Shown: one piece after another, positions 1 through 25,700 of the stretch
Layout: every line of letters begins with the position of its first letter
How positions within the stretch are numbered: the first letter of the stretch is position 1
Source: Phoronis australis
Lineage: Eukaryota > Animalia > Phoronida
NCBI GenBank assembly: GCA_002633005.1
Contig: NMRA01000359.1
Coordinates: 213,438 to 277,437, forward strand
Direction of reading: 5' to 3'
DNA: 64,000 bases
Notes under the pieces: generated by a model
What the model was told of the DNA's origin: nothing
Seen by the model: only the letters and a program-made list of their open reading frames with translations
Database searches by the model: none
Position numbers and translations under genes: made by a program

Positions 1-1299
1 TGTGCGTGTGCGTGTGCGTGCGCACCCGTAGTTGACTGTGCAACGGACTAAAAAAAAAAAACGGGAGCACCACTGTGAAGTGCGCGTTCTCGACAGACAC
101 GGGCTCGATGTCCACACAATGGCAGATTGTCGCAAAGTAGTCACCTCTGCTCCGTACTAGGACGCGACAAACTTGTTCATTTGGTAGACACTAATCAACG
201 GTCAGCCACATGCATATATAGATCAGATCCGACTAACTTCCAGAATTATATTTCATAGCCCATTTAAATTGGTGTTTTATGTTTTCTGTTCAATTTTGAG
301 GACTGAATAAAAAGTGAGGTATTGCCGAGCAGCTACAGCTAATCTCTATAATTAAGAATTATTGAAGTGCCTCCGGCACTAGTCAACGGGCCAAATTTGG
401 TGCTTTGAATGCGGGGGAACTGAACCGGGAAAAACAGCAGGCCTACACCGGTCACTACTGTCATGCCGGAGCGGGAGCAAAGAACCGTCGCATGACCACA
501 CATTAATTCAGTCAGCAGAAGCACGCCCCCTCATTATATTAGTAATTGTCTGAAAATCATTTGTGTTCGAATTCGATAACGTCGTACGTTTTGTCCAGTT
601 GTGCTTATGTAGTCATACCTAATTGGCCAGTTCTCGCCTCTTACAGTCCGATGAAAATATTTTCTAAACTTGTGTCTTCTAGTGGTCTTCGAGTTTGTAG
701 GCCTAATCACCCGGACGAAAATTTTGCCGTCGGCCGGCGGCGGCTGTTACTAAGTATACATTGGCTGACTTCTCGAGTGAATGGACGCTTTTCATTTCAG
801 TGCTTAGAGTCGGCAAAACCCTTGTCTTTAATTGGAGCAGGAACATAAAAATGTGGGGTACTGCCTGTGACTATGTTGAGCCGGCGCCGTTATAAACGGT
901 TACCCGGCCATCGCCATTACAGCGTTCTGTCGTTCAGTAACTTTAGTTTTCCAGACGTGAGGGATGCTGAACGTGCGATAACAATCTGGCCATTTTGTTA
1001 ACTTCCCAGCTCAGTCTTTGGTCCCGTATGATAACAAGCAGGCCAATTATCTCCCAAGCTTCAAAGGAAGCGTATGGTGGTTGCACGCTATTACCGAACG
1101 CGTATTCAGAACACAGTCAAACCCAGCCGAGTGCTTTGGTAATCCGTTTGGTCAGAATAGATTGTCTTAAATTCTGTTGTAGTTGGGCGATTTTGGTGAT
1201 TCAAAAACGGAACGTGATCAGCATTTGGCAAGGAATTCAGAAATGCTATTGGTTTAAGCTCAAATATGTTATAACTAAACTTTCATTTTTATCAGCCCA

Positions 1300-1800
1300 G
1301 TCAATGAGGATAGATACGATCTGATCGGAGATTAGGAGCAATTATTCGGAACAAAAGAGCGAAGGCCCTCCAACCATAAACGCCAGAATGGCGGAGTTAA
1401 TCAGACGTGTAAGATATTGGCTACGGGGGTAAACTTCCCAACTTGTTGGGCTATAGAATCGAACAAGACGGGAGCAACGGGATGTCCCGCCGCGCCGTCA
1501 TGCCTCGGAGGATGACGCGACACTAAATATTTCCAGCCTCTGGCATGCCTTATATAGAAGCGAGGCAAAACTAGCCATGTAAACATGGGTGTCATTTCCC
1601 CCATTTTGGGCCATGTATGAAGGCGCCCCCAGGAAACAGTGCGCCCCTTCGGCTGTAGGCCTACCCGCGAGGCTGGCCGCCGGCCCGGGGGGGCGGCGCC
1701 CACTGCCCGGCTTCACATGACTACGGTGCGTACAAGTGAGCCTGGCGGCCGCCGCAGAGCTACCTCAGCCCTTGGAAAGCGCAGTCCCCTGGGGAAAATG
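1300..1800 (+). promoter_or_regulatory. GC/CpG-rich segment, possible promoter or non-coding first exon of the flippase gene
   Basis: Locally GC-rich with GGGCGG; TATA-like cttatatag at about 1549-1557; possible donor AA|GTGAGC at 1736. Confidence 0.25.
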
Positions 1801-2224
1801 TTTCATTGGAAACAATTTTACATTTATACAGCATCAAAAATCGCATACGATGTAAACAGAGTGTTCTCGGACGTCGAGAAGTTGAAGAAATAAAATAGTG
1901 TCTCATTCAAGCAGCAGATGTCTCTCGGTATTTAATGACGGTTTTTGATAGTGAAGGAGTGATAAGACGCGTACTAAACAAGAGGGACTTTTCTAGGAAG
2001 TGGACGGCCGCCTTTGTTTATGTACGTGGCGAATGCCGCGTACATGAGGATATTTTACAGTGCATTTACTGTTCACAGAGATGTGGTAAGCCTGTTTCGA
2101 TTGTTTTTGCTAATATATATATTCGCATGTCATCCACTGTTGCGTTGAGATGCGTTTATAGACACATCTCGAACATGTCAAAGTCCATTGGATATGATAG
2201 ATTGTCCATTGCGTGTCGCATTTC

Positions 2225-2577
2225 TATTAGTCGCAATGCTATACGTGAACTTGGAATCCTGCTTAATTTTAAGATCGCGTAGGCCTGAACTTGGAATTAA
2301 ATTTTCCTTAAAGTAATCAAGTTTTTCATCATTGCATAAGTGACGTTGTTTAGTTGGCAAAAGCTATAAATTATAAAGGTTGATTTTAATCAATTTTAAA
2401 AGATTTACATTTTATTAATATGACGTGATATGCTTTAGTGACATGCAATTTTTAAGTGTGAATGTGATTATTTGAGTGAAATTGCCAAGTTTCTTAGGGA
2501 ATTCCACGTTCAGGCATGTGTGATCTTGAGATAAAGCAGAATTCCAAGTCCAAGCACAACAGCAATTCGATTATTAA
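2225..2577. mobile_element. Old degenerate MITE
   Basis: tgaacttggaatcctgctta...gcctgaacttggaatt (about 2247-2298) is inverted relative to aattccacgttcaggc...gaattccaagtcca (about 2500-2552). Confidence 0.6.
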
Positions 2578-2647
2578 CAGTGTGTGTGTGTTTGTGTGTG
2601 CATTGATGTCCGTACTAGAGTAGGACAAGATTTTTCTGGTCTCTTAC

Positions 2648-3576
2648 TAGGCAATGACCATCGCCTCTGTTGGCCCGAAGCAGAGGCGATGCAGAGGCTA
2701 TAGGCGCTCTGTACGCCGGAAGCTTTTCGGCGAATTATGCCTCGCACCGACTAAACCATCAAAGTCACGTTGTTATAAATACCTTTTGCGCATAGAGGAA
2801 CACCTTAGGAGGTTGTCGATGTGTTTAATTATTTCCAACTCGAACAAATACTCCCGTTATGAAATTTTTTCTTCGAGCAGTCCCTTTTTCAGTTCCCAAA
2901 ATCGTGAAATCAACTTTTTCATTTTTTTAACCAGGCCGAAGGTCAGAAGTTGCCGACCTACCGGCGAACTTTGAAAGCTGAAGTTCCCGCCCTTCGCGTA
3001 CGTGCTGCCGGAAACCAGCCGTGCATTTGCCGTGTTGTTAAACATTAAAATGTCAAATATGTGCACAAAGACTATTAAATGTCATATCAACAGCATTTAT
3101 TTTTATCAAATACAAACAATGATTCATTGAAATACAATCAGTTTCAAGTAACGCCAATTAAAGACAAGTATAAGTGGTGGCATTTTGGAAATGAACATTT
3201 GACTGACAAGACCGCAATGGCTCACCTTTGGCCTATTTAAAGATTGAGGTCATGAATTCACATCACCTAGCGAGCGCGGTAAAAATTGGAGCGTGCGCAG
3301 TATAAAAATAGTGAGTTCACGATTTTGGGAACTAAAATAGGGACTGCTCAAAGAAAAAGTTTGATAATGGGAGTATTTGTTCCAGTTGGAAGGAATTAAG
3401 CACATCAACAACCTCCTCAGGTGTTCCTCTATGCGCAAAAGGTATTTATAACAACGTGACTTTGATGGTTTAGTCGGTGCGAGGCATAATTCGCCGAAAA
3501 GCTTCCGGCATACAGAGCGCCTATAGCCTCTGCATCGCCTCTGCTTCGGGCCAACAGAGGCGATGGTCATTGCCTA
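2648..3576. mobile_element. Non-autonomous foldback/MITE with about 260-bp TIRs and 9-bp TSD (Mutator/MULE-like)
   Basis: TAGGCAATGACC...GGTCATTGCCTA near-identical inverted arms; perfect TSD gtctcttac at 2639-2647 and 3577-3585. Explains the mirror-image 106-aa ORFs. Confidence 0.9.
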
Positions 3577-4315
3577 GTCTCTTACATGCTGTATTTCTGA
3601 AATGCGCTATATCGCAGAGGTCCTAATCAGGCACAAAAGACTAGAAGATTTCAAAGCAGATTTGTTGATAAACGTTTTGACTCTGGATCACTGAATCACT
3701 GAATAACGGGCCCGTTACTTAGTGGATGAAACTGGTTCTGTAAATCAGGCACCGCTATACCTGACCAGGTGAAACATTACATACTTGCACTATTAGGCTA
3801 GATATCATATAGCTATATGGATATTTTTTTTGCCGTCTTTAGTATTTGAACGATATATATTTTATAGTGTCTTGAGTTTCCTAAAGAGCTGCATGGACAC
3901 ACTTTCAGAAACCTCCATTTTGTACGCAGAAAGCTCCTGACTGCTCTTTTGAAAAAATTTGGGAGGGCTATTTCAGAAACTACTCGTAGTGTTGCTGGGA
4001 GTTAGAGTTCATTTTATCATCAGTTTTCCCGCATTGCCTAATGTTGACAATTAATCAACTCGAAGAGGTGTTTTAATGAAAACTAATGATATCTTACAAC
4101 ATTTTTGGTACATGTGCCTCATGGCAAAATGGACAGAAGGAGCCTCCATAGAGGTTTTTTCGAACCTTATTTCTAACAGCTTATGGTTTACTTGTTCCCA
4201 TTTCAGTTCATAAAATGGTAAAAAAAGAAGAAACTGGAAATGCTGTGTAGAACATAAGAGAGAGTTAATTTTACACCAGTGTATTGTTATCAATCTCATT
4301 GACAAGTACTTCAAA

Positions 4316-4734
4316 ATGGGTAATTGCCTTACAAGAAACCGTATCACTGGTGAAGATTTGATTGAGGCGCCTTCCGACAATGGCCTGCCATTCCGACGTG
4401 TTTGTCCGAACCATCTCATTCCAGAAGATATCAATCCCAAGGAGCACCCAAACCGAGGCTTCTCTCACAATGCGATTGAAACCCAAAAATACTCAGCTTG
4501 GACATTTCTGCCAAAGAATTTGTTTGAGCAGTTCCACCGGGTGGCCAACGTGTACTTTCTCTTCATAGTCATTCTCAATTGGTGCCCTCTTTTGAATGCA
4601 TTTGCAAGAGACGTGGCCATGCTCCCTCTTGTGTTCGTACTGGCGGTAACGGCACTTAAGGACGGGGTTGAGGATTACTCTCGCTATAAGGCAGACAAGA
4701 AGGTCAACGGACGGTCGTGTCGTGTCTACTCCAG
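4316..4734 (+). CDS. ATP10: ATP10-like coding exon 1a (N-terminus, TM1-TM2), alternative first coding exon
   Basis: MGNCLT...[26 protein letters not shown]...KDGVEDY...CRVYS; ends AG|GTAGGT; 419 nt, phase 2, joins exon 2 in frame. Confidence 0.92.
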
Positions 4735-7700
4735 GTAGGTAACGCAGAATGTGAGAAGAGTCAAATTTTAGCGAAATGGATGCAAGATAAATCTCTCTAG
4801 GTTGATTGACGTTAATTCTGTACCATCCTCATACATGTCAACCTTTACGGAAATGTAGTCTATGACATTCCTTTAGAAAAAATTCAGTATTTATTTAGAG
4901 GTATAATCAATTCCCAGAATGATAAAAGAACACGTCACATTTACAAATGTAAGTTGTACACCGCAGATAGCATAAACAGCATGTGAAGAGTCTTATGGAA
5001 TCGTGCAATATCTTTTGGTAGCGAGACTTCGTTACACGTTTGATCATGGGTATATCATATTTTTTAATGCAGCTGTGCTACTCCATAGGTTGCCTGAGCA
5101 TGTCTTTCATTTCAATGAATTGGTAAATTGTCATTGTCACATTACAATCCAGTTTAGAGATCTTATGTATTTTTTCTTTTAATATTGATGTTTACAGAAT
5201 ATGATACAGGTGGGGACCCGAGGGTGTTGTATTTATCCTCTTCATCTTAGCACAATTGTCTGATTCAAAGTATTCTCATTTTTCCTTGCTCACATGTGTG
5301 ATGTTTTGTTAAATCTAACAGTCAAGGATTCAGTTTTGATAGACGCTGCAATGTGCTTTGAATCAAATATACCTGGATGTTAAATTGCTGTGATTGTCAT
5401 GCGTGCACCCAGCCTAAAATATGGGAGGGGCTTGAATTTTTGCCAATGTGGATCTTTCACCAACAAAAAAAATGGGGGACTAAAAAAAACAGGGTACCAC
5501 ATTTCAGAGCTATGAATTGTGCATTTGCGCCTTTTTAGTGGACTTTTGCCTCGTTTTCTCGGACTTTTTGTAACTCTGAGGTGGACCTTTTTGCCCTCTT
5601 CGCCAAATGGGGGGGCTCAAATGAGCCCCCCCTAGGTGCACACATGATTATTGTGGCAGAATTGACAAAACATGCTGGCAAAAAAAGGTAACTGTCTTAA
5701 ATATAGTGAAATACGCACCCCATGTGGCTGCACATCCCATAAGACTGCTCTAGACAGCTCCATTTAGAATTGTTTTTGTAGACTGCCTCTGACCCATAGA
5801 GCAAAATTTGGAATGAACACCCGATGTTCTGTGTATTCTTCAATAAATGTATATCACCTTAAAAAACACAGGAAATCTTGGAGCTAGTGGAAGTGATATA
5901 TTGTTGATAAGCCAAGACAAGGGTCACAGTATGAATGCCTTAGTTATGTAAATGCTTGTTTCTTAAGCTGCATATCCTGTTACTTGAATGAAATTTCTTG
6001 GTCTGGTTGGTTCTAACTTGCGACTTGAGTTTTACTAGTATATCCCACATTGGCAACTATTTTGATGCCCTAGTTGTCGGTAGTAATTGTTATTTTTATT
6101 TGAATTATTTGAAGATACCGGTATTCAGTTTAGGAGTCTTATGGACATAGAACTCCTGGCTTGTGTACAGGTAACTGCCCCTCATAGATATACCGTAAGC
6201 ATTCTGGTTAATGCCCATGTTCAGTTAAGAGCCCACCCTGAATTTCTTGAAATTTCACGTTTAAGCGCCCATGTCTAGTTAACCGCCCACCCCTGATTTT
6301 TTGGGTTGCCAAGTTAACCGCCCAAGGCGTTAACCCAAACATTTACGGTATATACTGCGTTTTTATAGCTGACGCAAGATGCCCAGACTTGTTAAACGAA
6401 TTGCATGTTTGGTGGACGGCAATTTCAGTGTTTTGAATTGAATGTACCATAAAAAATTAAACATTAATTTTGCAATCAGTGCACCTCACACTTATCCCAT
6501 TACCAGTACGCCATTTAGTGGCACCTGTCCTTGTGAAGTTTGCTATGTGTCCGTCCTCGCGTTGTGTATTACGAGGCAGTTCACAGATGCTTTTTCCCCA
6601 ATTATCTTATCCGTGAAAGCAGCAGGGGGTTATGTCTATGTATATTCCTGGAGGCGTTAAGTACTGTGTACACTTCCTGGTTAGTAGTATAGGAGTAGGT
6701 TTTATTGTCGACTTCGTATACAACATGCAAGCTGTGTCGGCCATGTTCCCTCGAGATTGCATGGCTGAAATTTGCGAGTACATTTGCCAATTACCAACTG
6801 TTTATTTTGATGTCACTCATTGTTCATCTTTACTCTTATCGATTGCCATTTTTCTGTTATCTATAGGTGTAGTTATAGCCAGGGGCAGTGTAAACAATGA
6901 TTATAAAGGAATTGAAGTAAACTTGTGTCTGTGTACACTAAAAGACAGGCACCAGCAAGCTTGAGACATAGCTTTTGACCAGTGAAAAAAGCTGGCCTAT
7001 GCAAACATTTGTTGTGAATTTAAAAATCCATCCTTGTCCTAGAACATTGATCATTTTAGAACAACTTCATTTTTTAAAATTTTGACTTGCTTCTTGAAAG
7101 AAATTTGCATATTTAGTGGATTTTAGAAAGCTGTTAGTGACTTTCAAGAAAAAATCTACTCAACTAGTCAAAGTTTAAACTAGATACAGCATTTTTACCC
7201 AATAATTTGAACTTTTAGACTGAACTGCAACTTTTATGTTCGTAGTGATGAAGATGCTATGTTGGTTTGGATGTCAATTGCCATTTTTTTTTTTGGGTTA
7301 ATGTTGTGACAAAACATGTTTTCACCCTTAATGGATTTATTAATGATTATCATTGTAGTAATATTTTGTGTAAGGAGTGCAGTTATGCCCAGCATTTAAA
7401 AAGTAACTTGTTTGCATAAGAAAGCTGCATTGATTTCAATTGATGGTTTTTCATAAAAAACACTGGCTTGTGGCAGCTTTTTAGACATTTTCAAAATTAA
7501 AGCACTGGTTGATTTAAATAAAAATTGTAAACTTCAGTATTCAAAAGATAAAAAGATGCTGTGGCTGTGTTTGAAAGATGAATAATGGAATAAGCTGATT
7601 CAGTTTCTCTAAAATCTTTTAGGCACATTTTGAAAGATTTTCTGAGTGAGACTGAATGCGGTTTCTTTATAGGTAGTGGATTAAAAGTTGTTGTACATTT

Positions 7701-10700
7701 ACTTATCCCACTCAAACACAATATGCCTTAGTTTTGCTAGAGTTTCTCTTCTTTTTTATAATGTTTATTACGAAATCTTCGATACAATGAATATACATAA
7801 CCCAGAAAGCTCCAAGAGGCATTATATCTGGGTTAAAAAAGTACAAAGAAATCTGTATACAATTATTTTACACAAATACATAAAAAAGAAGTCTGTATAC
7901 AATTATTTTACACAAATACATAAATTAAAAAAACTGTTGTTAAGATCACAATGACATATGATTTCCGAAAGTAAATAAATCATTTTCATACACATATATA
8001 CAATTCTATCGACTCACACAAAGAGATTTAATATTATAAAGAAATTTTGATACTATTTCGAATAAAACCTTATTTTCATTTGGGTTGAGTTCTTGACTTC
8101 CATATAGAAAAAAAATAATTTTGTTGTACACTTGTGGAATTTCAGAATATTTTTTATAAATATTGGGGTATTGTTCAAGTGTCTGGAAAAGCTGTACCCT
8201 CTGCTCCTTGCATACCTCGCAAGCAAAGAAAACATGAGCATTTGTCTGTGCATCTCCACAGCAACATAGAGGCGAAATATTATTAAAATTATGTCTAAAT
8301 TTCTCGTTGTTAAGGAATAGACCGCATCTTGATCTGTAAAAGATTATTTCGTGGGCTTCTCTTCTCAACACCTTATAATTCCCAGCAACCTTTGCGCATA
8401 TGAAAATGGCAGCTATCAACAAAGAGTTGAATAGATTTGCCTCTCCAGTAATTTCAGAAAATACATTTTTATGGGTTGACAATTGCTAGTTACTTAGATA
8501 TTTGAAGAAAAAGGCAGCATTTCAATTGGAGGTGACCTTAAACTATCCAACTTTACAAACACAAGATCCTACAAGCAAATCTGTTTACAAGAAGAAAAGT
8601 AGTGTAAAGATAAATTTGTTAGACACAAAGAAGCAAACTGTAGCCTGAGGGCTAGTTACCTACAGAAAAAATAACACTTGAATAGTGTTTATGTACTAAA
8701 GCAAAAAAAGGAAACTGGGATATAAAAAAATTGACACAAATATTCAAGCAGTCAAAAATGTAGTAGTTACCACCTTGGTGAAAAGATATACAACAACAGA
8801 TAACAATTTTGGCACTCACAGTCATTTTTTGCATTTTATTTCATTAGTATAGATATGTCCAAAGATATTACTGCAGAATACAACTGAATATAAATTAACA
8901 TGGTATCTGGGGAAACAGGTGGACATTACAGAATTATACAAACAGTAATAATGACTAATTGTGTACCAGCATATACAATTTATATAGACACATGCTCCAT
9001 GTATTATGTACATGCATATACTAATATGCACATACATGCTACATGTATTTATGAAAAGGGATACACAAGTAATACTTTTACGTACAAATGTGCACTTAGT
9101 CTATGAAGAATAAGTATGCAAAGGGTATTTTATAGGGAAACATACCGTGTGTGTGTGCCTGGGTGTGTTTGTCAATAGGAAATATACCATAGGTATTTAT
9201 GTATGTGTGTGTATGTATGTTTGTATAGTATGTGTGTATGTATGTATATAACCTGATATTATTTATGATAGCAGGAAGGCATTAATAAGTTCCTCTGATT
9301 ACAGTCATATGAACTACAGTTGCAATATCAATATGGTCAATAAAGATAAGCTTCAAGCACACGGGCATTCATAAGGAAAAGTTGTTACAACACACTTGAA
9401 GTTTTTCAGGTCATGAATGCAACATCTTATTGTTATGTTGGCGATAACTTTTTCACGTTGACTACCTTGTGCTTTACACCATGAAATAACCAACAAAGTT
9501 TATGTTGCAGAACTCAGGGTGGCAGACGTTACCGTACACGTATACACCTGTATGCGCGTGCTCTGTGCAACTTGTTATTAGTGGGGAGACGGCAATGAGT
9601 TCCATTTGGGTTCTCAATTTTTTCTAACAAGTTTATTCACACTTCAAAATAAAGAATTCAAAGAAGTACCGTGGCCCTGAAATAAGCATTGCGAAGGTCT
9701 CATGAAATTGTCAATATTAGTCGAAAACAGCCGGCATTCTAAGTTAAATTTGGTCATGGTTTCTGAGGTGACCGGGGTCTATTCTGACGGAATAGTCCAT
9801 TTCAGATGATTCTGCAAACGCGGTGACTACTAAGGAACAGGGCTGCGTTCCGTGACGGAAGACACTTGCTAGAAAAGCTAACGTGGCAGCGTGCTTTGCT
9901 GCTAAAAACCCCGGCTTTCGGCAATATGACGAAGAAACACGTAAAACGAGTTACCCAACTTTTCGTACGTTTAACATTTCCGACGAACGATCTTCCCTGG
10001 AGGTGAGCGTAAGGATCTGAAAACGAATTCAAAACGATGTTACACGACCAGTCACTAACTTTCACTAAAAATTATCAACGGCCATCAAACGAGTGTTGCT
10101 GCGACATAAACATCTGTGGTCACCGAGCTATGCACGTAAGGCTCGATCACAGGATATGTGCGGGCTTTTGTAAAGGCACTGTCTCAGTAACTCGACACTG
10201 TTCGGAAATCCACGTCGTTACCGGGTCAGAAGGGAATGAAGCATTCATTTTCATTGTCCAGCAGGGAATCGAATCCCTTCGTCATTCCCAGCCGTAGGGA
10301 AGGAACTTTCCTGACGTAATCAACTGATAAATCTCTATGATGAAAATAATCATGGGATTAAATAAAACGGGGACGTTATTTTTTGTCACTTCATTATTTT
10401 TCTCTATCTCGAAACCATTATCGCCAGACATAGCGTGTAATCGAAACTGAAACCCGGCGGTGTCGCAGCTAAACCGCTTGTGTTTGACTGACCAAACAGT
10501 ATGGCGCCGTTAGGCTCAGCCATATATCCTATCAGGACAATTAGTGACTACACAACGAAATTTGAATCAACATTTTCAGTCGTTTACTTGCTGGGAAACT
10601 TACCATTGGCGGATTTAGAGGGGCCAAAGGGCCATGCCCCCCCCCCTAAAATCCTCCCAGATTCCATTTGGCAGTTCGGGAGTGCGAATGTGTGACGGGC

Positions 10701-13700
10701 AAAATCCTGGCTAATACGTTGCCCTGCCCCCAAACTCAAAATCCTGGATCCACCCCTGAAATGACTGATATTGCATGTATATCCACGAAGTATGTAACTT
10801 TTCAAGTCAACAAATTACTGCAGGAACTGTCGGGCATTCAGTTTTATTTTCAATTGGTTAGTCCCGAAAACATGGAGTACCAGTATTTTCAAGGAAGCAT
10901 TTCATATAGTCGGCTATGCAGTACTATAAATTTCAATTGACTTGTGGGAACGTGCATCGTTTGAAAAACCTGATGGCTAGTAACGGCCATGAAAGCCGAT
11001 TTTTGTAGCTCTTGCGTCTACAAAGCGCGCTCCAGTTCGGGAGTTGCTTTCTCAGTCCAATGTTGGCCAGTAGTCTGTCCCGGATGCCTGTTATAAGTGA
11101 CGGTCGGCACGTAATTCCACACTTGGCCTACAATGACTGCTGTCCTACTCACTTCCTTGTTTGAGCGAATATAACTGAGGTCAATTTTAGTTAGCTCGTG
11201 AGTTTAGCGCCAGACGAAATAACGAATTTTCTTTTTCCTTTTGGGGAATATGCTCAGCATTAACAACTGGACAATGTTTTCTTTCGTATCAGTAAGGGCT
11301 TCGTAGTCAATGGACTCTGTTGCAGTTAACTGTTACCGTGCTTTTTTTCGAAAATAGCATCGATATTAATCGGTGAGCTGAGTGAAAGGAGTGAGGTTGA
11401 AATTTTCGAAAATAGTTGCTGTCATTTTGTTTAAGACTGTTCACGATTGCTGAACATTTTACTTCTCAGTGTGGACATTTTAGTCGTAATCGTCACTGTC
11501 GTCTGATGCTGAATTCTACAGGCAGAACCGCCACCATTGAAGTCGTCGAAATGCTTGAGCTGGTCCTTACATCCCGTGACCCCGTTTTTGACGCGTCCGG
11601 TGGTGGGGGTGCGACCCCACTCTTTCTATGCTTTTACTGCTAAAACAGGAATATTTAAAGCCTTTCTTGATCGGTAACACCTGTAAATTTAGTTCCTACA
11701 GTATGTTAAGAGTATCGCTCTGAGCCCACTAGTGCCATAAATTGCCAAATGTAACGAACTGTTAGGCATATTGACTTGCTTTTGTTTACGTCACCACGAG
11801 AATCACCTTTTAATTCAAACACTGAGTTGCCAATATACCCGCACACAATGGTGTTCTATTCCGACCCTTTTTCAATACAACTGTTATCGGCCTTTTGTTA
11901 TTTGTGCTGGGATCTCGCGATGACGCAACATAGCACGAAAAGGCAGCTTCACCTAACATTTGGCATGATTGCATTTGCGTGATTGAACTCAGTCCGGTGC
12001 GTTTTCTTATTTTACTAAGGCTTTGTTAGGACTATCTGGTTAGCCACTGCATCTAAAATAACAAAATTACGTTGACGTTAGGCTTTAAAGGACCATTTCG
12101 CCGTTGTTTGGTTATAAATGTTTAATAATTAATCAAAATGCTTTGTGGTTTAAAAAACATTACCACGCTCATCCGACCTTTATTTGTTGCTGAATGAACA
12201 AGAACTTAAGCCATAGTTAACATGTACGTGCTTCAATTTTCGAATTCACAATTTTAGTGTTGGCACTTTGAAGCGTTTTCTTGATGGTTTCTAGTTCTGG
12301 TTGGTAATGGACATCGAGTCTTATCATGGGAATTAGAAATATTTTGGGACCGATTTTTTGAGTTTATTTACCTTATTCAGTTTTTCGTGTGTTTTTTTTA
12401 TCTTTGGAAGGTTAACACTGATGAAATGCCATGTTTAGCGGGCTAAAAACGAGAATCGAATTATGCATTTTACTCTCATAAAATCGGTTTCATGGCATTC
12501 CTTACTGGTGGCGATAGTATTCTATTGTCATTACCGACAAGAACATCGAAACCGTTAGTAACTCAAAAAAACGATTCAAATTTAATTGGGACTGGCTAAT
12601 CATAAACTTGCGAATTCGAAAGTGGCTTATGTAGGCATTGTCTGTGGCCTGAGTTGGTAGGGGAAATAAAATCTCATCACGGTAAGGAATATCTACACTC
12701 TTTCACAGTAGGTAGCGCAGTGTAAGAACTGAGGTACTGAGTATGAGGACGATTTTATGAGAGTAAAAGCTTACTTCGATTTTCGTTTTAACCAGCTAAA
12801 CGAGACGAAATGAGGCTTTAATCTATTCAGTACAGGTCCTGTTTACAGCCAGCAAAGCCTTGCAGGTCTGCACAAGATGGGACGGGCGTTAACCCGAACG
12901 AAGACTATGTTTCTTCTGCGTATTTTGATTTCCCACTTTCACACCAGAGGTCGTGTGGATATTTTCTGTTGTTTTTGAGACATGAGGAGAAAAACGGGCG
13001 TCATGAAAACGCCAACTTTTTTATTTCTGCAAAACTGTGCAAGAAGAAGCAATTCAATTTGAAAAGGTAAGTATTCTAAGCAGAAGTTAACGCATTCATA
13101 GTGACAGCAATTGTATCATGGAAATAAGGACAGGTATTACAACACTCAACTAGGCTTCCTTCATGAATTCGTTGTCGAAATTCGTCTGCTATCAGTATCA
13201 AGATCACTGGAAGACACTGCTGCGGTGCTGGGCAGCACTTGATTGACTTCGCCGGGTAAACCGGCGAAACGGGCAGTCAGTCGAGTGCAGGCAACGATTC
13301 TTTTTCCGCAGCTCAACGGAACCGGCTTTAGTGATTGGTGTATAAACTGGAATTTGTCCCAGATCATGTCTTACCCGACTTACTCGGCAGAACTGGAAGA
13401 GTGAATCGAGTGTTGCGGGCATGTAGTTGCAGTTAACTCCAGTACTTTCTTATGAAATTCTCAATGCCTGCGCCACTTACTTTGTGTACATATCTCAGCT
13501 TCTACAGTTCTGGTATATGTATTCAATGCTTTCACAGTCATCATTTTGGAAATGCACTGTCAAAAACGAGGCAACTTGTTGCCCTTATTAAAGATCCAGG
13601 CATTCATGGTACATTGTTGTGTACCTTTGTGCAGAAACGATTTTAAAGTCACAAGTTTCTTACTACAAAACTTCTGTGCAAAGTAAATGGGTATCTTAAA

Positions 13701-16700
13701 TTCATCAAAACCATGGGAAAATAAGTTGCAAGTGTAAGTCCTTGCTGATTAGAACTAGAAGTTCTTGGTCATCGAAATTCTCGCCAGCTTGCTTTCGCAC
13801 ACACTAACTCGTCGAGCTTACTGTAAACGTACTTATAGAAAAGTATAAGGACATCATAGTTACACACCATGAGCAGATTTAGGAGGGCCGGGAATCTGTC
13901 CCCCTTCAGGCACAAGCAGAAAAGGTGCTAGCAAAACAAAGGCACCACCAGCATAGCGTTTTAAAGCCTATCTTCAACAATAACACCTGAAAATTTGGTT
14001 CCAACAGTATGTTAAGAGCATCGCTCTGAGCCCACTAGTGCCATAAATTGCCAAATGTAACAAACTGTTAAGCGTATTGGCTCGCTTTTGTTTGCATCAC
14101 CGCGAGAATCACCTTTTAATTCAAACAGCTGGGAATAACACCCACACGCAATGGTGTTCTATTCAGACCCCTATTCAATATAACCTTTTGTCGTTTGTGC
14201 TGGGATCTCGCGGTGACGCAACATAGCACAAAACGGCAGCTTCACTTATCATTTGATGGGCTCACACTTGTGTGATTGAACTCGCGTTTTCTTATTTTAC
14301 TAAGGCTTTATTAGGATTATCTGGTTAGCCTAATACATCTAAAGTAACAAAATTCCGTTGAAGTTAGGCTTTAAGGCATTTTAGGCCTGACGATAACATT
14401 TGCTCCTTGCCACTTGTGCTTGTTGCCTCATTCCCTAAAGTCATCCACCGGTACATAATCAATTTTGGTATGCAAATAACAAGGTCAGAATTTTCTGGTG
14501 AACACTGCATTTCCTCGAGAACTAATAAATAAAGACCAATGTAACATTGGTGCAAACCTTCATTGGCATTTTTACTTAAGTCTAACACAGACAACTTAGG
14601 CTGTCATTGCCATATACATGCAAAACTAGTTAAACTGTTATTGCATTTTCCATTATGTGTGACACAAAAAAGTTTACATTTTCTCTTCATGGAATTTTCA
14701 TGCATGATCGTCTCTTCTCTATGCCATTGATATCTTCTTGCTTAATGACCAGTAAATTTGTCAAAACTTTATACCCCATGCTAACTGTGGTAAATCAGCC
14801 ACTGAACACACATAACAAAACGCCTCGTTTTCAAGTTGGGTGACAGCGACATCCAAACACGCATGTAGAGAAGTCAGACTAGAGCTTCTGATACTTTCGT
14901 AAGTACCTTGTCCTAACAATGTGACAGACAATACATCACCATTGAAAGTCCCCTCAACGCCTTCCTTTACCTTGGTTTTGTGAGCATTTTGAGAATAATT
15001 TGAGAAGTGTAGCTTATTAAAGCTCCTGCAACACCAGAAACAAAGCCAGAATCTGTTGGCATACATGCCGGAAGTATAAGTTTCTAGCACTGCAGGTGTC
15101 TAGTGAATAATGACATATTCACTCCCGAGGTTGACATAGCGTAGGTGGCGCTGGTTCGAGATTATGACTTTCCGGCTTGTATGCAATGTTATAGACCTCG
15201 TGCATTGAGAATATGCAGAGATGGCAGTGTGTATACTGATGCTGTGTACAGTGTACATTAAGCACAAGCAACTTGACAAATCGCGGGTCACACAAACAAA
15301 ACTTTGAGTGTCACAAAGTTCTTTGTAGGAATATAAACATTGAAAAACTTGTATTTTTTTTAGAAAATTGTTTGCCAATGTTCGTCCACAGGCTCTCTCT
15401 TCATCCACTCGACACTGTACTTTAATATATTTACCGACTACAGCATTCCAACATGGCCACTGAACAGACAAGCTGCCACTGACTAAAACTAGAGTGTTTG
15501 CTAAAAATCCACTTCACTGATCATGTTTGAGGAGGATTGAACCAAGAGCAGACATGCAGCTTTGGTTCAAAGCAATGCAGTTCAAATTCCACGGCTCAGT
15601 CACCAGAAAGAGATTAGCCAAGTGCCACTGGTTTCTCCATGTTATGCACATGCTCACACGCACTCGCATTTTGAATTAAAAATAACAACATGTATGTTTG
15701 TTTTGTTGAAATGATTGTATAGGAGTGGATGATTGAATGCAAGTCCACCTTTAATAATCTACTGCCAGGACCTATACACGGATGCACCGCCATCTACATT
15801 GGAGAAACTTAGCACTATGCTGTTCAAGTAGTCAAGAAATACCTCTAGTTCATCGAGATGTTTTGTTTATTAGTGGGGACATTATGCTGTTGACGAATCT
15901 AGCTGGTCAGGTTAGGTATTGTTATCTTGCCCCTAGCTAATGTTTCTCTGCGCTTGACGTGCATTGTATCTGTATCGGCTGATGGCCAATACCTTGGCCA
16001 ACAGGAACGAAGAAATATTTCTTCAAACACTACCATAAGATGACAGAATGACGCTGCAAGCTGACAAAGGCAAGGTGGCTAGTATTAGATGAAGGTGACT
16101 ACATCGATGAGATAACGGCCCAGTCCCCAGACGACAGTCACGGAAATCAAAGTAGATAACACTAACGTTGTTGACAGGAAGATTAGAGCTCAGTTGAAAA
16201 CTGCGAAGGCATTACTGCCACGCGAATACTTCAGAAGAGCAACATGAAAGCCCACACATGTACAGAAAATCTAAGATACCCAAACCAGACATGCCAATGC
16301 GACCAATCACAAGCTACACTGTTTCTCATTATCACAAACTAGGTAGTTGGGTCACTGTGACGAGTATGATTCACTTGATAAAGGAAGGCTCCAAAAATGA
16401 CAAAAATCTATTCCTATCCAGGAAAGGAATGGATGGACTGTATTGCGAGTGAAAACTGGTGGCAAATTACACAACAGCTTTTGTTCGGTGAATGCAACCT
16501 GAAAAAACCAACTGGACTGACTTGATGAGCTACAATGCTGAGCTCACTCATTTGCAATGACACACAGTACCACCTGCATTTGTCATCAAGAGCCAGAATT
16601 TGACTTCCTGTTTTACCCCCGCCACTCCGCTTATAGCTGAAGACAAGTACATGTGCACTAATTCTGTACTTATTTTGCACCAAAATAAATATTTTACCAA

Positions 16701-19700
16701 AACTGTCATTTTCCATTTTTCGATGGCTGATTTCTTTGCTATAAATAGCAGAAACTGGAAATTTTACCAAATGCTGTTTTTTGGCAACTGCACACTAGTA
16801 GAAAATATGTTTCACTTAATAATAAGGGTAAATAATGTTCTTACTGGTTGTGAAAAAAGAAATGTTTATAGAATAAAATTTTGTTAATATTTATTTTTGT
16901 CAAGAAGTTTAATTAACAAAATAGAATTTCTCCTGTCAGTCGTATTGTGTGCTAAACAAGTGATGAATTACTGCTGCAGTATAATACATTCAGTTATTAT
17001 TAAGATAAACAATATTTGCTTTTTGATTCGTATTTAGGTTAATGATAGGCGAATGGTAAAAGGTTGAGGGTGTCTGTCAGAAATGTTGGTCTCGACGATC
17101 GTATGAATTTCTTGACTTTTCTCCCTTTGCAGATAAATTTTGAAAGTTGATGACAAGACCTTGTTTTTGGTTATCTTTGAAAAATTCTTTTTGTTCAAGA
17201 AAGTCTGTCATGTTCCACGATTGTCAAGTTGCTTGTACAGCATTTTGTTCTGTCTCGACTCAAACAGAGTTTGTAGGTGTAGATGTGAGGTAACTTTGTT
17301 GGCATTTGAATCTGATCAACAGTTGTTTGTTATGTGGAATTTAGATAATGCTGTATTGCGGCGTTTGTACGTAAAATTATTTAGTCAGGTGGTGTTCATT
17401 ACTGTGATAATCTTTGCTTTTTCAGTTGCCAACAGCGCGCTCATCTGAGATAAAAGACTTTGTTTTGAAAATGGAAATTCTTTGAGGAGGTAAAACCATG
17501 GGTAACTGGTTGAAGAGACACAGATGTACTGGTGAAGATATTGTTGCTGTTCCATCTCGCCATTGTCCACCATATCGACATGTTATTCCAAATCATTTAT
17601 TGCCTGATGACCTCAATCCCCACGAGCATCCAAATAGATACTACGCCAGTAATGTGATAAAAACAACTAAGTATTCCGTGTGGACCTTTCTGCCCAGGAA
17701 CTTATTTCAACAATTTCATCGGGCTGCCAATATATACTTTCTGTTCATTGTATGTTTGAACTGGGTGCCACAGGTGACTACTTTTGCCAATGAACTCGCT
17801 ATGATTCCTTTTTTGTTTGTGCTGGGGGTATCCGCAGTCAAAGATGGTCTTGAAGACTACCAATGCTACAGATCAGATAAAAGAGTTAATGTAAGATGCT
17901 GTCGAGTTTATTCGAGGTAAGGGAGAATCGTGATTTTTATTTTGTGTTTTGTTAATTAGCCGTGTCATTGTCTTCATCGCGTGGCCTGAAATGGATTGCT
18001 TTGCAACTTTAGTGACTTGTGAAATTTGAAATTAACAGTTAATTGGACTAATAAAAAACCTTTTTTAAACTATTAAACGTGTTTTTATTTGATTTTAAAT
18101 CGAGGCTGTGTAGCTCCTATGCTTTACCTTATTTGGTGAGCTCTATTTTAAGTTATCATGACAGCCTTTTTTATTGTCATTTTTTGTCTAAACTAGGGTT
18201 CTTATCAGTTTTGTGTGATTTATACGTAATCTTTTTTAGTGTTGACTCACCAAAATCTGGCTGGCGCCTGTAATCAAAATGTCATGCGAATTTTTTTACC
18301 GTTGAGCCATTATTTTTTACGCTCTCGGCAAGTCTTTGTTGCATTTACGATATTATCAGTTGTGGCAACTTTAAACGATTTTCGTGTGTTAAAACTATTC
18401 AATCTCCATAGCAATGTCATTGCATTCTTATCCTATGTGTGAATTGAAGTTAGTGACAATAAATTGCCAGAAATTCCCATCCTGATGGCGGTGCCATCTA
18501 GGGGATTGAAACTACCTGTAATAATCATCCACAAGAACAGTAGCCTCCTTGTTTTGTTCAAGCCTAGATATGAATTCTGATAACAGTAAGGAACAAAATG
18601 TGACCAATTTTTAGTTGTAAGCAGCCTAAATCAACTGTTGGTTTTTGACGGAAGGCACATGAAGTAGTCTCCTCTCTATTTCACAACAAAGAAGTGGGTT
18701 TGGCCAATTTCAAACGTCCTGAGAGAATGTTGAGAGTGACTCACCGTGAGGACATCTGACGTCATCAACCGAGGACTTGTAGCAAGGGATTGACTGTCAC
18801 AGACGCATGACTCAACCATATCGTAAGCCATGGGATTTGGCACTGGACCAGTTGTAGTACTGTTTTAACAGATAGCTTGGAAATGAGAAAACTGAGTGCA
18901 AAGTGGGTTCCCTGAGTGCTTAAGTGGGGATCTAATGTTGAGCTGATTTCAGATTTTGAGGACACTTTCAACTTCTTTGTAGTCTGATCAAGCCAACGTT
19001 TTTGAAAAGATTGAGCCACTAAATGATATGTGGGTTCACCTTTTTGATTCTGAATTAGTAAACATTAACCTAACAGTGAAAGCGTGACACTTCTCAAAGT
19101 CCCAAAAAGTTCAAGTAATAACCTGTGTTGGCAACTGCCAATGAAGACAACCACTTCTGTGCTTTGGGACTGCCAAGGAATGTTTGTCATTGACTTCCTA
19201 CCAAAGGGACATACTGCTGCTCTACAGGGAACTATTACACGATCACTGAAAGAGTCTGTAAAAGAAAAACGCAGAGAGACGAGTTGGGAGTGCTGATTGT
19301 TTGAGACAGGAGCAACAAGTGCAGCCAAATGCCGCTGAATGTTTCCCTATCGGCCAGATCTGGCTCCATCACTCTTTCCAAAAGTAAAGTGTTACGTGCA
19401 TGGTCACCATTCCACGACGATGGTGAAAGTCATGCATGCTACTGAGAGCTGTAGAGAGGGCCAAGCTGTAGTTACTTCCTAGAGGGGAGACTGGTGGAAA
19501 ATAAAATTATTGAATATTGAATTAATGACTGTCTTTTTCTTGACGTTGTTTTATGAATGAGGCCAATAACTTGTTGAATGACCTCCATATCCTAGAAATG
19601 TTAGTTATACTTTACTGTATATAGTAAAAGTAAAGTTAACATTCAAGCCTTGAGTTTTGCCAAGTAGTGTTTTGTTGCACATTTCTTGTGGAGTTGTGTC

Positions 19701-22700
19701 ATTGTAGAATATCTGCAACAGAATATATTCTATAATTTTGCAAGAATCTCAGTCATTAAATGGAAGCTTCCTCTAAAATGATGCAAAGAAATAAGTGTTA
19801 GAACCCTTGCTTTTTACACCTGTCTATCAATTGATTGTACGAAAAAATGTTGAATGTGTGAATTTTTCAAGTCTTCATTAATAGCTTTTACTTTGACCAG
19901 GACCCTCTCTGCTAAATCCAGAGGTTGCTTACTCAAGATGCCATGTCTAGGTTACCTTTTCACACGACTACTTTAATTTAGTTTTATTTTGCTGAACACA
20001 AATGTCCTTAGGAATTTTTAACTGATGGCATGCTCTCTTTTGATGAGATAGTTGTATCATCCGATATTTTTCATGCATTTTTTTGGTCTCATTCCATAGT
20101 GATCTGTACAAAGGTCATTCATTTCCTCCTCGAGTTACACGACGATAAGCTTTCTCACCCAACTGAAATGAATACAGGTTATAGTGGCCTTTCAAGTATT
20201 TCCTGATAATTTGTAATACGTGATCTACAATATTCAGCTCCAATTAACTTGGGTGGAACAAAGTATTTATCTTTATTAACAAAAGGGTAAGAGCATAGTA
20301 GCAGTAGGTTATCTATCAACTGCCCATCCTTTGTAGCAGCATACGTGCATGCATGTTTTTTAATATTAGTGGCTGTCATTAACCTTATCTGCGATTATTG
20401 CTCCGGGTTACGCTTTGGCAATTCAGTGACGAGAGATCCCATGGGGCCATCTGATTTAAAGGTTGGGAAGGCATATTAACAGCGAAATTCGCTTAATAAT
20501 TCGTATTAAGTGTCAGCTAAGTCTATTGTTCATGTTAGCTGGAGTCCCGCAGGTCTCTGAACTGTTAGTATAAAACTAAATGGTATTCAGTGTCAGCTAA
20601 GTCTATTGTTCATGTTAGCTGGAGTCCCGAAGGTCTCTGAACTGTTAGTATAAAACTAAATCGTATTGGGTGTCAGCTAAGTCTATTGTTCGTGTTAGCT
20701 GGGGTCCAGCTTTTCTGAGGAGCTGAATTTCAAACACAAAATCGACTTACTTGAATAGTGACTAGAACTTGTATTGTCCTAAAAGAATAGTAATTGTGGG
20801 GATTTTGGCATTTGAAGACTGTTCCTTACTGATTTATTATGGTAGTAATGAAATTGGTAGTATCTTACAATGCTTAGGAGTCGTGCTGTTTACCGGCATT
20901 GTTCATAGACAGCCTAGATCTTGTCAATACTGAGGTTTGCAAGACATGTTATGTTTTGCCGTATTGTTCATGAAAGTCGCACTCTGGCATTTTTGCATAG
21001 GTCCTAACCGCTAACGACACCGATTGTGTAGTAGGCCTCTCAGGGGGGTCTGTTGGCGATGAGGGAATAGTAGAACTTAATGGGAGTTAAACTTATAAAT
21101 AATATTTATTTAGAACCTGCTATACTTATACTTGGGTTGCATGTTTTCTGTTATGCAAGAGTTGCTGAAGACACAACACATGTCGTTAGGGACAATCTTT
21201 ATTCCATTTTGTTCATAAGTATGTTTCGAGATACCTTGCGTCTCTTAATCATGTTTCTTGGTCAGTTACTTTACCTAGTATGTTCTGTTGAATGTCGAAC
21301 TTTGTGCCGAGGTTGTGAATGGAATAAAGATTGTCAGTAATGACAAGTGTTGTGTCTTCAAAGATTTGGCAACATGTGAAGCGTCATGTATATCTCTCTT
21401 ACAGGATTCAAATGGAATGTTTAATGTGATGGTTTTAATTGTTCGCCATTCTCTAAAATGCTTTTAAGGTTCAACTTCGCTCGAGGTTCTATAAAAATAG
21501 GATTTAAATGATTATTATAAAAGTGTCAAAAGTAGTGTAAAGCAACCATGAACAGACTATTCATAGAAAGCAACTGTCAGCGTTTTTTCAGATTCCAACT
21601 TGAATATGATTCAAAAGAAATCTTGGTTATGCTGTGTTAGGCTATTGGGTAGAATTAAGGATGTTACACTTTGAAGATTATTCAAAAGATCATCACAGTG
21701 AGCGAAAATTCATGATTGTTTGCAGGAAGGAGGGTAGATATGTTCGAACGGAGTGGAAAAAGATTAAAGTTGGTGATTTTGTGCACTTGTCCTGCAACGA
21801 GACCATTCCCGCCGATATCCTGCTGTTACAGTCGTCTGATGATAACAGGCTTTGTTACATCGAAACAGCTAATTTGGACGGGGAAACCAACCTGAAGCAA
21901 AGAGAAAGCGTGAAAGGAATATCGTACAGTGTAAGTTTTGAAGAGTTGAGCCCTTCTTGTCGTTTATTAGCTCATAGGGCCGGTTAGGCTCATTTGGTTC
22001 TGATCTGTGCTGCGCAGTAAAGACTTGATGTCAGGTGATTTTTGTAAAAATAACTCTGCCTCGTTATCACTAATAAGTTGATATTTGATGAATTTTATAA
22101 AAAGGGAAAAAGACATTGCTGTACCACTTTAGCTGATATGTGATTTTTTTTGTTTCTGAGAAATAAGATAGTGTCAACAAGCTCAGACGTGAACCAAATA
22201 TGTTTTTAGCCTCGTCTCTTTTACTCCATGCTATGCAAATACAGACTAATCATTAGGGCAATCACCAGTTGACCCCAACTTGTTCTATGGAACAGCAAAC
22301 GAACAAATTGACTTGTCGACCAGTTTAGCCAATATGCTTTGAACGTTCGTTTCGTAACTACCAAAGTTCCAGCTTATCGATTTTAAAATCACACTCGCAA
22401 CATAAGCTTTGGAATAGATTTTCTCCAAAAATGATGTTCCTTATAGTAGTGAGATGATGCTTTTAGCTGTTAGTGTTCCTGTCTNGTGTTGTTTAATTTT
22501 CAGGGCTATGCGCCGTATTTCCAAAGTTTCCCAAATCATTCTATGAGCTCAGAACACCTACATCTTGCGGCACATGTAATAATGACTTCGCAATTAATAA
22601 GTTTGCTAGTTAAAGTTGTTGGCTATTAAATGTTTTGTGTGTTTTTGGTTTTGATAATTTTTTGCTTCATTTGTCACGCTTGTTTAAATTCTGCAATGAA

Positions 22701-25700
22701 ATGTTGTTGGTTTGAGTTGTGAATTTGTATTTTTCCACAGGTTTCCTAGCTTCTTTGTCTGCTTTTTCCTTACGTGTTTAATGCACAATTACTGTAAAAG
22801 TCAGTTACAGCATTGTCCTTGAAAAACTATTGCACGGTACCTGATAGAAATCTCCTTTACATGGAGGCAGGAAAACACGTTGTTACATTTTAGAAATGTC
22901 GAGCTGATTGTAAGAATTATATCAGAAAATATCGCGTTATGGACACTCCTCAAGTTTACCCAACTTTCTGTTACCAGGAGTAGTAGTTCTCTGCACAGCA
23001 GTAAAACGTCGCTGGCATTAGATGGCTGAATTCAGTAAATGGAGTCTAGATAAACTTTGAAAAAAGCAAGCCACCAACAATTAACGTGAGAGACTGTAAT
23101 GGCGCAAAAATGAGGCTAGAGAACCACTTGACGGATTTGCAGCATTGTGGGTAAATACCGTGATATTCAAGTGTCGCTGCGTAATCTGGAACCGTCCTAT
23201 TGTTTTGCGTCAGGTTTCTTGTTTGAATCCTCCCTGGTGGTCGTTCTATCACCAAACCATGGGCTGATTGAAACTCCCTGGTTGCTTGAATGGGAAGTTT
23301 GAACTAGGATTTTTTCAGTTTGATATTTGTGATTTCACCATGACCTACACATTAATTAGTTAGCAGTGCATAGGACTTTTTAATATGTTGAAATTTTAGG
23401 GAATACAACTGTAGAAAAATTCGAGGTACCTCTGCACTTCAGTAATTGATCTTCCTCATTAAAACTTGCTTTGCAATTGTCATAACATAATGGTGTTCAT
23501 TCACAGGATGGTTCGTTTCACCCAGTTAAATTCCGCTGCAAGGTTCAGTGTGATCTTCCGAACACACAAATCTACAGAATCAGTGGCGCTGTGTAAGTTA
23601 TACATTAATTCTGTTATGGCATGAAAAGTTTAACAATGAAATCAATTTCAGAAAATGTACATTGAATTCCAGTTTCAAGCTTCTAATATTACTGGTATAG
23701 ATAAATATGGGCTGAGTTCCATTGATGCATGAAACTGGTGAAAAGACAAGGCCACGCATTTCTTGTGAGATGCCACCATGCATAAGCGAAGCATGTGATC
23801 ACAAGTAGTAGTTCCCACAAGTGTCTTGTGATAATAAAAATCTGATCAAAATGTGTTTAGCAAATTTCAACCCAGAACCCGGTGAAAACTTCAAGAAACA
23901 ATTTGCTCCTAGCCACGATTTTAGAAACCAATTTTTAGTTTGATTTCCTGGTTTCAGCCTAAGGTCTATAAAAAATTTGGAAATCAAAATTGTTGACTTG
24001 GAAATTTTCCCCCTTGTCGAAGGCTGCATAGCTGGTAAAAACCCATAGATGGCGCTATTAGGAAATTAAGCACGACTTATTTTAGGTACTGTGCATGAGT
24101 GTTTGATTGGCACTGCTAGATTTGTAATTCAGTCTGTCAGTTTTCAATTTTCAAGGAACGATTCGGCATTTATTTTGCTGCGCTGAAGAGCATATGCTAG
24201 TTTCAGAGAAATTGATGCTGAAACTGACTCTTATTTATATTTTTACAGAATTCAGCCTACGGGAGAGCGTATCAGCCTCTCAAAGAACAACATATTACTA
24301 CGCGAGTGTGTCGTTAGGAACACTGACTTTGTGGAGGGAATTGTACTTTATGCAGGTCTGTGATCATTAATTAAAAGTTGTCAGAATTTGGACTCGGTTT
24401 AATTGCATCATAGAATATTCTGCAACGGTCCGTTCCAAGAAACTGAATTAAGTTCATTTTTTACTAAAGTCTAAGATTTTCGTCTCAACTCCAAACTTTG
24501 AAACTTCCACATCTGGTAAGAGAATTAATATTAAACAAAACTTATTGGTTAAAAACTTGATATCTTTCTTGAAACGGTCTAGAGCCAAATTTAAGTGTGT
24601 TTTATCTTAAAATTGATTGAAATGATTTAGCTTAGTCAGTTTTCTTGGAACGGGCCCCAGGTCTCTTTATATTATATTTCGCTTGAAATCAAAGTTCCAT
24701 TTTCTCTTAGAAATAAGTTTAAATGCATTTTTGGGACAAAAATGTTTACAGTAAAAAGTTGGACTATGTAAGTTAGTCTCTAAAATTTGAATTACCTTAA
24801 TTCATGCCGAAGTTGAGTTTTCTTGGTTCCGAAAATTTGCTGTTTTGGTATTTATCATATTTCTTAAATATTGTCTGAAAATAGACTTGGCAGCTCATGA
24901 AATTGTTGAAAATAGACACTGTCTCAGTGTTTACTTGTGTCTCCATATTGCGTAACATCAAGATGAAGCATTGTTTGTTGTTCATCGTTATTCTTGAATG
25001 TGGGACGGCCAGGATTGTCTAATTCTAGAATTCGATACAAGCTCGTACCTTGAGCGAAACAATTGACATTTCACTGTCCAATACTGTAGACTTGTTACGG
25101 TATGTCATAACTTCCAGGTCATGATACAAAGGCCTTGTTGAACAACCGAGGTTCAAGTTACAAGCGAAGTAAACTTGAGAAGCACATGAACAAAGATGTG
25201 CTGTGGTCAGTTGTCCTGCTCATTCTCATGTGTGGCTGCTGTGCATTAGGTAGGTGTCTGTGTCCACCCTAAAATTCTCCCAGATTACATGTGGCAGTTC
25301 GGGGGTGCAAATGTATGACGGACAAAATCACGGCTAATGTTAATTCTGCCCTGGCCCCCTCTAACTCAAACTCCTGGATCCGCCCCTAAGCATAGTTGCC
25401 AATAGTTTAGATGCAGGCTGACATCATCTGTGTTTGTCTTGGTCAAGAAGAAATAGGGAGAGCTCCCTTTGTCATACTGGGGTGCGTTAAATAAGGCCAG
25501 TCTCTTGAGAGTTTAAGATTAACTGTCAAGGATATAAAATGAAAAATGAAATATTTTATTTGTAAATGTATTCAGACTCAGTGCTAGTAAACTTGACGTA
25601 ATATCTACTAAGGGTAGACGATCTCCAGAATTAAAAGGACCGAAACTGTGTGTTTCACATAATTAATATTTAGTATGTGTTGTCTACTTATCTCTATTCA

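Follow-up and report, generated by a model that had tools for sequence, protein, structure and literature searches.

Tandem duplicated exon substitutions have been counted in 236 human events, of which 39 are N-terminal and are attributed to alternative promoters (PMC8373072, PMC9741552). The same surveys describe them as ancient and tissue-specific, with transmembrane proteins over-represented and with frequent convergence in orthologous genes, and convergent exon duplication in transporters was already reported (PMC9741552). The supplementary table of PMC8373072 includes human ATP10B as event 24, i.e., an N-terminal substitution between ENST00000327245 and ENST00000642502, dated to Chordata and without a proteomics flag. 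Here, a gene of similar layout is described in Phoronis australis (Phoronida). The window, i.e., the whole stretch of 64,000 nucleotides (nt) that was analyzed, covers positions 213,438 to 277,437 of contig NMRA01000359.1. It encodes what its sequence identifies as an ATP10-type (class-5) P4-ATPase with predicted flippase activity, and two copies of the first coding exon, 1a and 1b, are spliced onto one gene body.

ATP10A prefers phosphatidylcholine (PC), ATP10D carries glucosylceramide (GlcCer) only, and the entry-gate features that separate PC-preferring, GlcCer-only and mixed flippases are described as unclear (PMC12424579, section 4.1). A gene that swaps transmembrane segments 1 and 2 (TM1, TM2) alone on an identical body is a natural controlled experiment on flippase specificity.

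Duplicated first coding exon

4316-4734, forward strand: coding block of exon 1a, ATG, then 139 codons that cover the N-terminus, TM1, the exoplasmic loop and TM2, with a phase-2 donor
17498-17916, forward strand: coding block of exon 1b, ATG, 139 codons, phase-2 donor
4207-4734, forward strand: exon 1a, acceptor at 4207, 528 nt, with a 109-nt leader holding two short upstream open reading frames (ORFs), ATG at 4316
17426-17916, forward strand: exon 1b, acceptor at 17426, 491 nt, with a 72-nt leader holding a 4-codon upstream ORF, ATG at 17498
21726-21930, forward strand: shared exon 2, A domain with DGET motif, from read junctions

The 1a/1b pair is a real, expressed and sample-dependent duplicated-exon substitution in one ATP10-type P4-ATPase gene. 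Each coding block is 419 nt from ATG to GT donor, has no stop and no indel, and is in frame with 21726. The first-pass annotation, made from the letters alone, had described two such intact paralogous blocks, and a recount confirmed them. Its figure of 86 identical amino acids (aa) of 140 also holds, i.e., 85 of the 139 full codons plus the shared junction Arg (61%). At the nucleotide level, 271 of 419 positions are identical (65%), and tblastn aligned the copies at E=1.5e-60. Both match PF16209 (86 bits for 1a and 90 bits for 1b), and the closest named relatives of the gene are ATP10 proteins (VA/VB/VD). The exoplasmic loop (residues 90-100) has 3 of 11 identical residues, as counted before.

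No third copy of the exon was found by tblastn within the 64-kb window, and the flanks of 1a and 1b share no significant similarity. With 106 full-length homologues as tblastn queries, no copy of a downstream exon was detected in 4735-17497, which upholds the earlier statement that this is not a tandem gene. The annotation had also let both exons begin at the ATG. This part has to be corrected: both exons are longer and start at splice acceptors, so 1a and 1b open the coding sequence but not the transcript.

Transcript evidence and isoform usage

Four runs with the same species label were used: X1, a set of contigs, and X2-X4, raw RNA-seq runs from a single study, each read to approximately 18-19%. 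The junction 4734->21726 was present in all four runs, as a contig in X1 and as 4, 5, and 6 reads in X2, X3, and X4. The junction 17916->21726 was present in two of the four, with 6 reads in X2 (6 different starts) and 2 in X3, 0 in X4 and absence from X1. Both junctions that the annotation had proposed to count were found, and its reading of one gene with two interchangeable exons stands, as both exons are spliced to exon 2. The coverage of 1a and 1b lies nearly all on one strand and matches the orientation of the shared exons.

The proportions of 1a and 1b differ between samples. By depth, the 1b share of the two was 0.46 in X2, 0.48 in X3, and 0.08 in X4, and an approximate fragment-level test gave p=2e-5. 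The two copies are not combined in one productive transcript. The loose read ends listed there, for which the threshold at the 1b acceptor was 3 reads, include none derived from 1a, and a transcript joining 1a to 1b would meet a stop 4 codons past the last 1a codon block, inside the 1b leader.

Leader exons and candidate promoters

13041-13066, forward strand: 3' end of the 1b leader exon, likely non-coding, donor gtaagt at 13067, from a loose-end consensus match
9500-13500, no strand: CpG-undepleted zone, candidate second promoter region, surrounding the 1b leader exon, repeats also present

The 1b exon is fed from 13066, which lies between the copies and downstream of 1a. Loose ends before 17424 joined this leader to 1b in 8 reads of X2 and 6 of X3, and all loose ends listed at the 1b acceptor came from it (agreement 1). 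Upstream of 1a, the X1 contig aligned from 4208 and carried 84 more bases without a place on 3700-23620. The exon that precedes 1a was not located, with six donor-like sites in 1-4200.

The CpG observed/expected ratio per 500 nt was 0.9-1.26 in 1-3500, 0.0-0.84 in 4001-9500, and 0.7-1.26 in 9500-13500, and CpG was mostly depleted in the remainder of the first 20 kb. This pattern, with candidate promoters in 1-3500 and 9500-13500, would suit two promoters in an animal with gene-body methylation. No Rfam family was matched in 1-25000.

Some further observations were made on the leaders. Reads over the 1a leader commonly lacked 1 nt at 4220, consistent with non-coding sequence. In the 1b leader, a read variant at 17473 abolishes the upstream ATG (17471-17473) in 9 of 10 reads of X3 and 2 of 9 of X2. 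The repeats at 11654-12088/13960-14374 and 10600-10760 draw many reads originating elsewhere.

Age of the duplication and selection

Between 1a and 1b, the proportion of synonymous differences (pS) was 0.74, i.e., saturated, and that of non-synonymous differences (pN) was 0.23, giving a pairwise ratio of non-synonymous to synonymous rates (dN/dS) of approximately 0.08 with a bootstrap upper limit of 0.23. These values agree with the earlier claim of an old duplication with both copies kept. All four coding differences of the X1 contig over 1a were synonymous. Branch-specific dN/dS was impossible because no relative of either exon was found above 68% identity. The clade of 1a and 1b was supported at 96/93 in one exon tree and at 96/89 in a tree with the vertebrate types. 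Against six outgroups the two copies had similar rates (e.g., 12:10, 11:11, 7:10), with no asymmetry. The duplication appears to be old and specific to this lineage.

Residues of the lipid path

Exon residue n corresponds to residue n+142 of yeast Dnf1, an offset that is identical at residue 69 and at residue 135. T254, D258, and R264 of Dnf1 are selectivity or exit-gate residues (PMC4937031; PMC12424579, section 4.3), and G230/A231 and the Pro-4 residue of TM4 are likewise named as determinants (PMC12424579, PMC4937031). The G230/A231 equivalents, i.e., the TM1 gate pair, are Asn88-Trp89 in both copies, and the D258 equivalent is Asp116 in both. Gln at Pro-4 of TM4 is a feature of GlcCer transporters. 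It is present in the shared body and in 82 of 83 homologues. The strongest known determinants are therefore unchanged between the isoforms.

Other positions of the path differ. The T254 equivalent is Thr in 1a and Ser in 1b (Thr in 112 and Ser in 0 of 118 homologues). The R264 equivalent, Arg in 104 of 118, is Ser in 1a and Gln in 1b, and the Arg that comes next is Cys in 1b. Changes of 1b at residues that are invariant or near-invariant in the 118 homologues are E71Q, A95T, T112S, and R123C. In the loop, V90C and E99D of 1a and N94T, A95T, and K98N of 1b are residues found in 0 of 118, and the near-invariant columns altered are different ones in each copy. Within residues 45-139, no 11-residue window is less conserved than the loop. 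Of 1051 matched family pairs, 4 had a loop identity of 3/11 or lower, and scan correction made this 51 of 1157, a borderline result from pairs that are not independent. At columns conserved at 90% or more, 1b departs at 5 of 39, above all 83 homologues.

The copies also differ at exon positions 71, 98, and 99, which correspond to F213 and P240/G241 of Dnf1 and which we take to be gate positions. After Gly2, the N-termini carry Cys4 and Thr6 in 1a, and Trp4 and Lys6 in 1b. By the usual motif rules, these positions would affect myristoylation and palmitoylation. In ATP11A, specificity can be altered by exit-site changes alone (PMC11536178).

These residues make a functional difference between 1a and 1b plausible, and it could arise equally well at the exit or the entry gate. 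The annotation had read the pair as two different lipid entry gates. Two entry gates are unproven. The TM1 pair and the TM4 Gln are common to both isoforms; the loop is unusually divergent, and the T254 and R264 equivalents differ.

Interpretation and alternative explanations

The best explanation, with a probability of about 0.6, is that one ATP10-type gene makes two transcript forms with either duplicated first coding exon, likely from separate promoters, and that the proteins are predicted to differ in lipid handling or targeting. Splicing of 1a or 1b onto the common body would give two flippase forms. With the TM4 Gln and the TM1 gate pair unchanged, both would likely still belong to the GlcCer/PC class. 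Exchanging the exon would adjust lipid preference or transport rate by way of the exoplasmic loop and of TM2 at its cytosolic end (T254 and R264 equivalents), and N-terminal lipidation may change as well.

Several points weigh against this explanation. Its functional part is a prediction from sequence, and the two strongest known determinants, i.e., the TM1 gate pair and the TM4 Gln, do not differ between the isoforms. The departure rate of 1b from conserved columns is not significantly above that of the shared region of the same gene (19/231; p=0.36). For separate promoters, no transcription start was mapped, and the leader exon is known by its 3' end. The sample difference has p=0.058 by junction counts alone, and its reading is limited by runs that come from one study with unknown tissues. 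A single coding difference was listed for the 1b reads, and it changes an amino acid (H42R), at a position in a variable region. In a tree of the core alone, the 1a and 1b clade had 91/80 support, and the alternatives were not rejected by the approximately unbiased test (p-AU 0.22 and 0.27). Faster evolution of exon 1 was seen mostly against Paralvinella and was inconsistent against molluscs.

It is possible, if on the unlikely side, that the isoforms are biochemically equivalent. The copies would then be kept for their own regulatory regions, i.e., subfunctionalization of expression, and the loop differences would be drift under relaxed constraint. The shared gate residues, the similar rates against the outgroups, the frequent departures from consensus in the shared region as well (19/231), and the different usage between samples all agree with this. 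A loop that is the least conserved stretch of the exon and more divergent than most matched family pairs argues for a functional difference instead, as do the different near-invariant columns changed in each copy. A single upstream promoter is an unlikely arrangement. After a shared first exon, the choice between 1a and the leader with 1b would be made by mutually exclusive splicing, and the premature stop would remove any transcript that carries both copies. Both copies do start at acceptors, the joined form does meet a stop, and the 5' end of the leader exon is unmapped. However, that leader lies downstream of 1a in the CpG-undepleted zone and supplies every loose end that was listed where 1b begins. 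In 12500-13060 no acceptor stands out: among 364 background AG sites, 11 equal the best score.

It is very improbable that 1b is a transcribed copy that is decaying or weakly active. Such a copy could explain the altered residues listed above, the non-synonymous variant, and the absence of 1b from the X1 contigs and from the junction reads of X4. But 1b has kept its frame free of stops and indels despite saturated synonymous sites, accounts for close to half of the X2 and X3 transcripts, matches 1a in Pfam score, and has no rate asymmetry. An assembly artefact, an allelic copy or a tandem gene remnant can practically be dismissed. The 65% nucleotide identity, the dissimilar flanks and the lack of any downstream exon copy between 1a and 1b do not fit it, and both junctions in raw reads already refute it.

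Shared gene body and other features of the window

22504-22575, forward strand: cassette exon, 72 nt in frame, 24 aa inserted in the A domain, from read junctions
23507-23592, 24249-24355, and 25118-25249, forward strand: shared exons, from read junctions or loose ends and frame
27520-27644 and 33576-33828, forward strand: shared exons with TM4 (Pro-4 Gln) and the DKTGT phosphorylation motif, from a homology model outside read coverage
36947-47245, forward strand: nine further shared exons with N and P domains and TM5-TM10, from a homology model, C-terminal end open

The modelled protein has 1141 aa, is stop-free with one X at the 33828->36947 join, and is open at its C-terminal end. It carries the motifs DGET, DKTGT, TGDK, and GDGAND, and the Pro-4 Gln of TM4. 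The join 33828->36947 is out of phase, and the model points to a missing small exon or another splice site between these positions. Three candidate exons for this gap were unconvincing. In a tree of the shared region, the gene groups with an annelid and molluscs (98), outside the gastropod/bivalve clade, a position that by itself would point to an annelid or another spiralian as the likely host.

The cassette exon is a second variable part of the gene. The junction 21930->22504 had 4, 9, and 0 reads in X2, X3, and X4, and skipping had 1, 2, and 15. The ratio of inclusion to skipping was 13:3 in X2 and X3 together against 0:15 in X4 (p=3e-6). Across samples the cassette rises and falls with 1b, but it is more frequent than 1b and hence not strictly coupled to it. 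In the ten homologues displayed, no insert of this size was present at that site of the A domain.

Around the TM5-6 exon, tandem and dispersed copies of approximately 67 nt were found at 43853-44399, which consist of the exon acceptor and the first approximately 45 nt of the exon. The copy at 43878 retains a good-scoring acceptor. Elsewhere in the window, a 267-nt inverted repeat with 95% identity at 2646-3578 flanks approximately 400 nt and is likely a non-autonomous DNA transposon. A stop-free frame of 257 codons on the reverse strand at 58402-59172 belongs to a separate downstream gene.

Comparison with known systems

The annotation knew of no such arrangement in ATP10 genes, which does not hold: by the supplement of PMC8373072 human ATP10B has it, and gar proteins have it too. 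ATP10B is a member of the same family with two homologous modules of N-terminus, TM1, loop, and TM2 on one body, with the same exon boundary and divergent loops. In the tabulated ATP10B event, two exons (92+65 aa) make up one module and a single exon (129 aa) the other, whereas both Phoronis modules are single 419-nt coding blocks with 61% identity. The ATP10B proteins P0306 and P0092 of two gar species are 43% identical over 83 module residues and 98% over the next 300.

In the tree of exon sequences, type 1 of ATP10B clusters with ATP10D (100/96) and its type 2 with ATP10A (98/92), and monophyly of the ATP10B N-termini was rejected (p-AU 0.0067). In the shared-region tree, both gar forms stand together (100), with ATP10B beside ATP10D (88). 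The simplest reading would place a duplication of the vertebrate modules ahead of the A/B/D split, with differential loss afterwards. This reading was not met in the parts of the literature covered, where no search was aimed at it. The Naja gene model P0166 fuses parts of both ATP10B module types, which indicates a tandem arrangement in that genome.

The copies of the window were not found divided between the two vertebrate types. Holding either copy with type 2 and ATP10A was rejected (p-AU 0.024 and 0.012), and placement with type 1 and ATP10D was not (p-AU 0.125), in tests of 117 columns whose groups leave out other invertebrates. A separate origin from the vertebrate ATP10B layout is favored because the copies group together and the placement with type 2 and ATP10A was rejected. 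Among invertebrate proteins, no pair with divergent exon 1 on a common body was found (119 testable of 158 proteins; 181 of 326). An Aplysia protein of 146 aa on the same scaffold was considered as a second exon 1 and rejected as a C-terminal fragment.

The surveys PMC8373072 and PMC9741552 cover human, fly, and nematode, and their main texts do not name ATP10B (0 matches). One supplementary file of PMC9741552 had no match for ATP10. A lophotrochozoan ATP10 exon pair was not found in the literature consulted, and the tables of PMC9741552 beyond that file could list invertebrate ATP10 events.

The UGT1A and protocadherin clusters (PMC8373072) likewise place a variable N-terminal module on a constant body. 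In a variable-first-exon cluster of this kind, each variable exon is its own first exon, whereas the gene of the window has two copies only, both beginning at acceptors as internal-type exons behind leader exons. ATP8A1 (event 29 in the table of PMC8373072) is also a P4-ATPase with a homologous exon swap, but the swap is approximately 25 aa in the A domain and not in the membrane gate. In Saccostrea, two pairs of ATP10 isoforms of equal length (P0171/P0310 and P0311/P0312) have 28-29 differences inside one 67-aa TM5-TM6 block. This block is likely a mutually exclusive duplicated exon, equivalent to the window exon 44355-44555 of the same length. With ATP10A/B/D and yeast Dnf1/Dnf2, as described in PMC12424579, the gene shares DGET, DKTGT, GDGAND, the Pro-4 Gln of TM4, and no Gln at the TM1 gate position. 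Unlike Dnf1, both window copies are without Arg at the R264 equivalent.

A wider reading, doubtful at present, would make the TM1-loop-TM2 exon a swappable cassette for lipid specificity, duplicated more than once in ATP10 genes. In Phoronis, a regulated choice would switch lipid preference. In vertebrates, the duplication would predate the A/B/D split, with ATP10A and ATP10D each keeping one type and ATP10B both. The preferences of ATP10A and ATP10D fit this idea, as two data points whose bodies also differ. If it is true, the unexplained PC-versus-GlcCer difference would sit in this exon, and the second human ATP10B isoform would be an ATP10A-like pump. The recurrence in the window gene, vertebrate ATP10B, and the oyster TM5-6 pair suggests that substrate-contacting helices were repeatedly made swappable.

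The exon-swap layout is thus not new to ATP10, and the Phoronis gene is likely an independent repeat of the catalogued ATP10B design. Because the study on ATP10B in Parkinson's disease assayed the 1461-aa isoform (PMC7244618), the Phoronis gene draws attention to isoform choice in human ATP10B.

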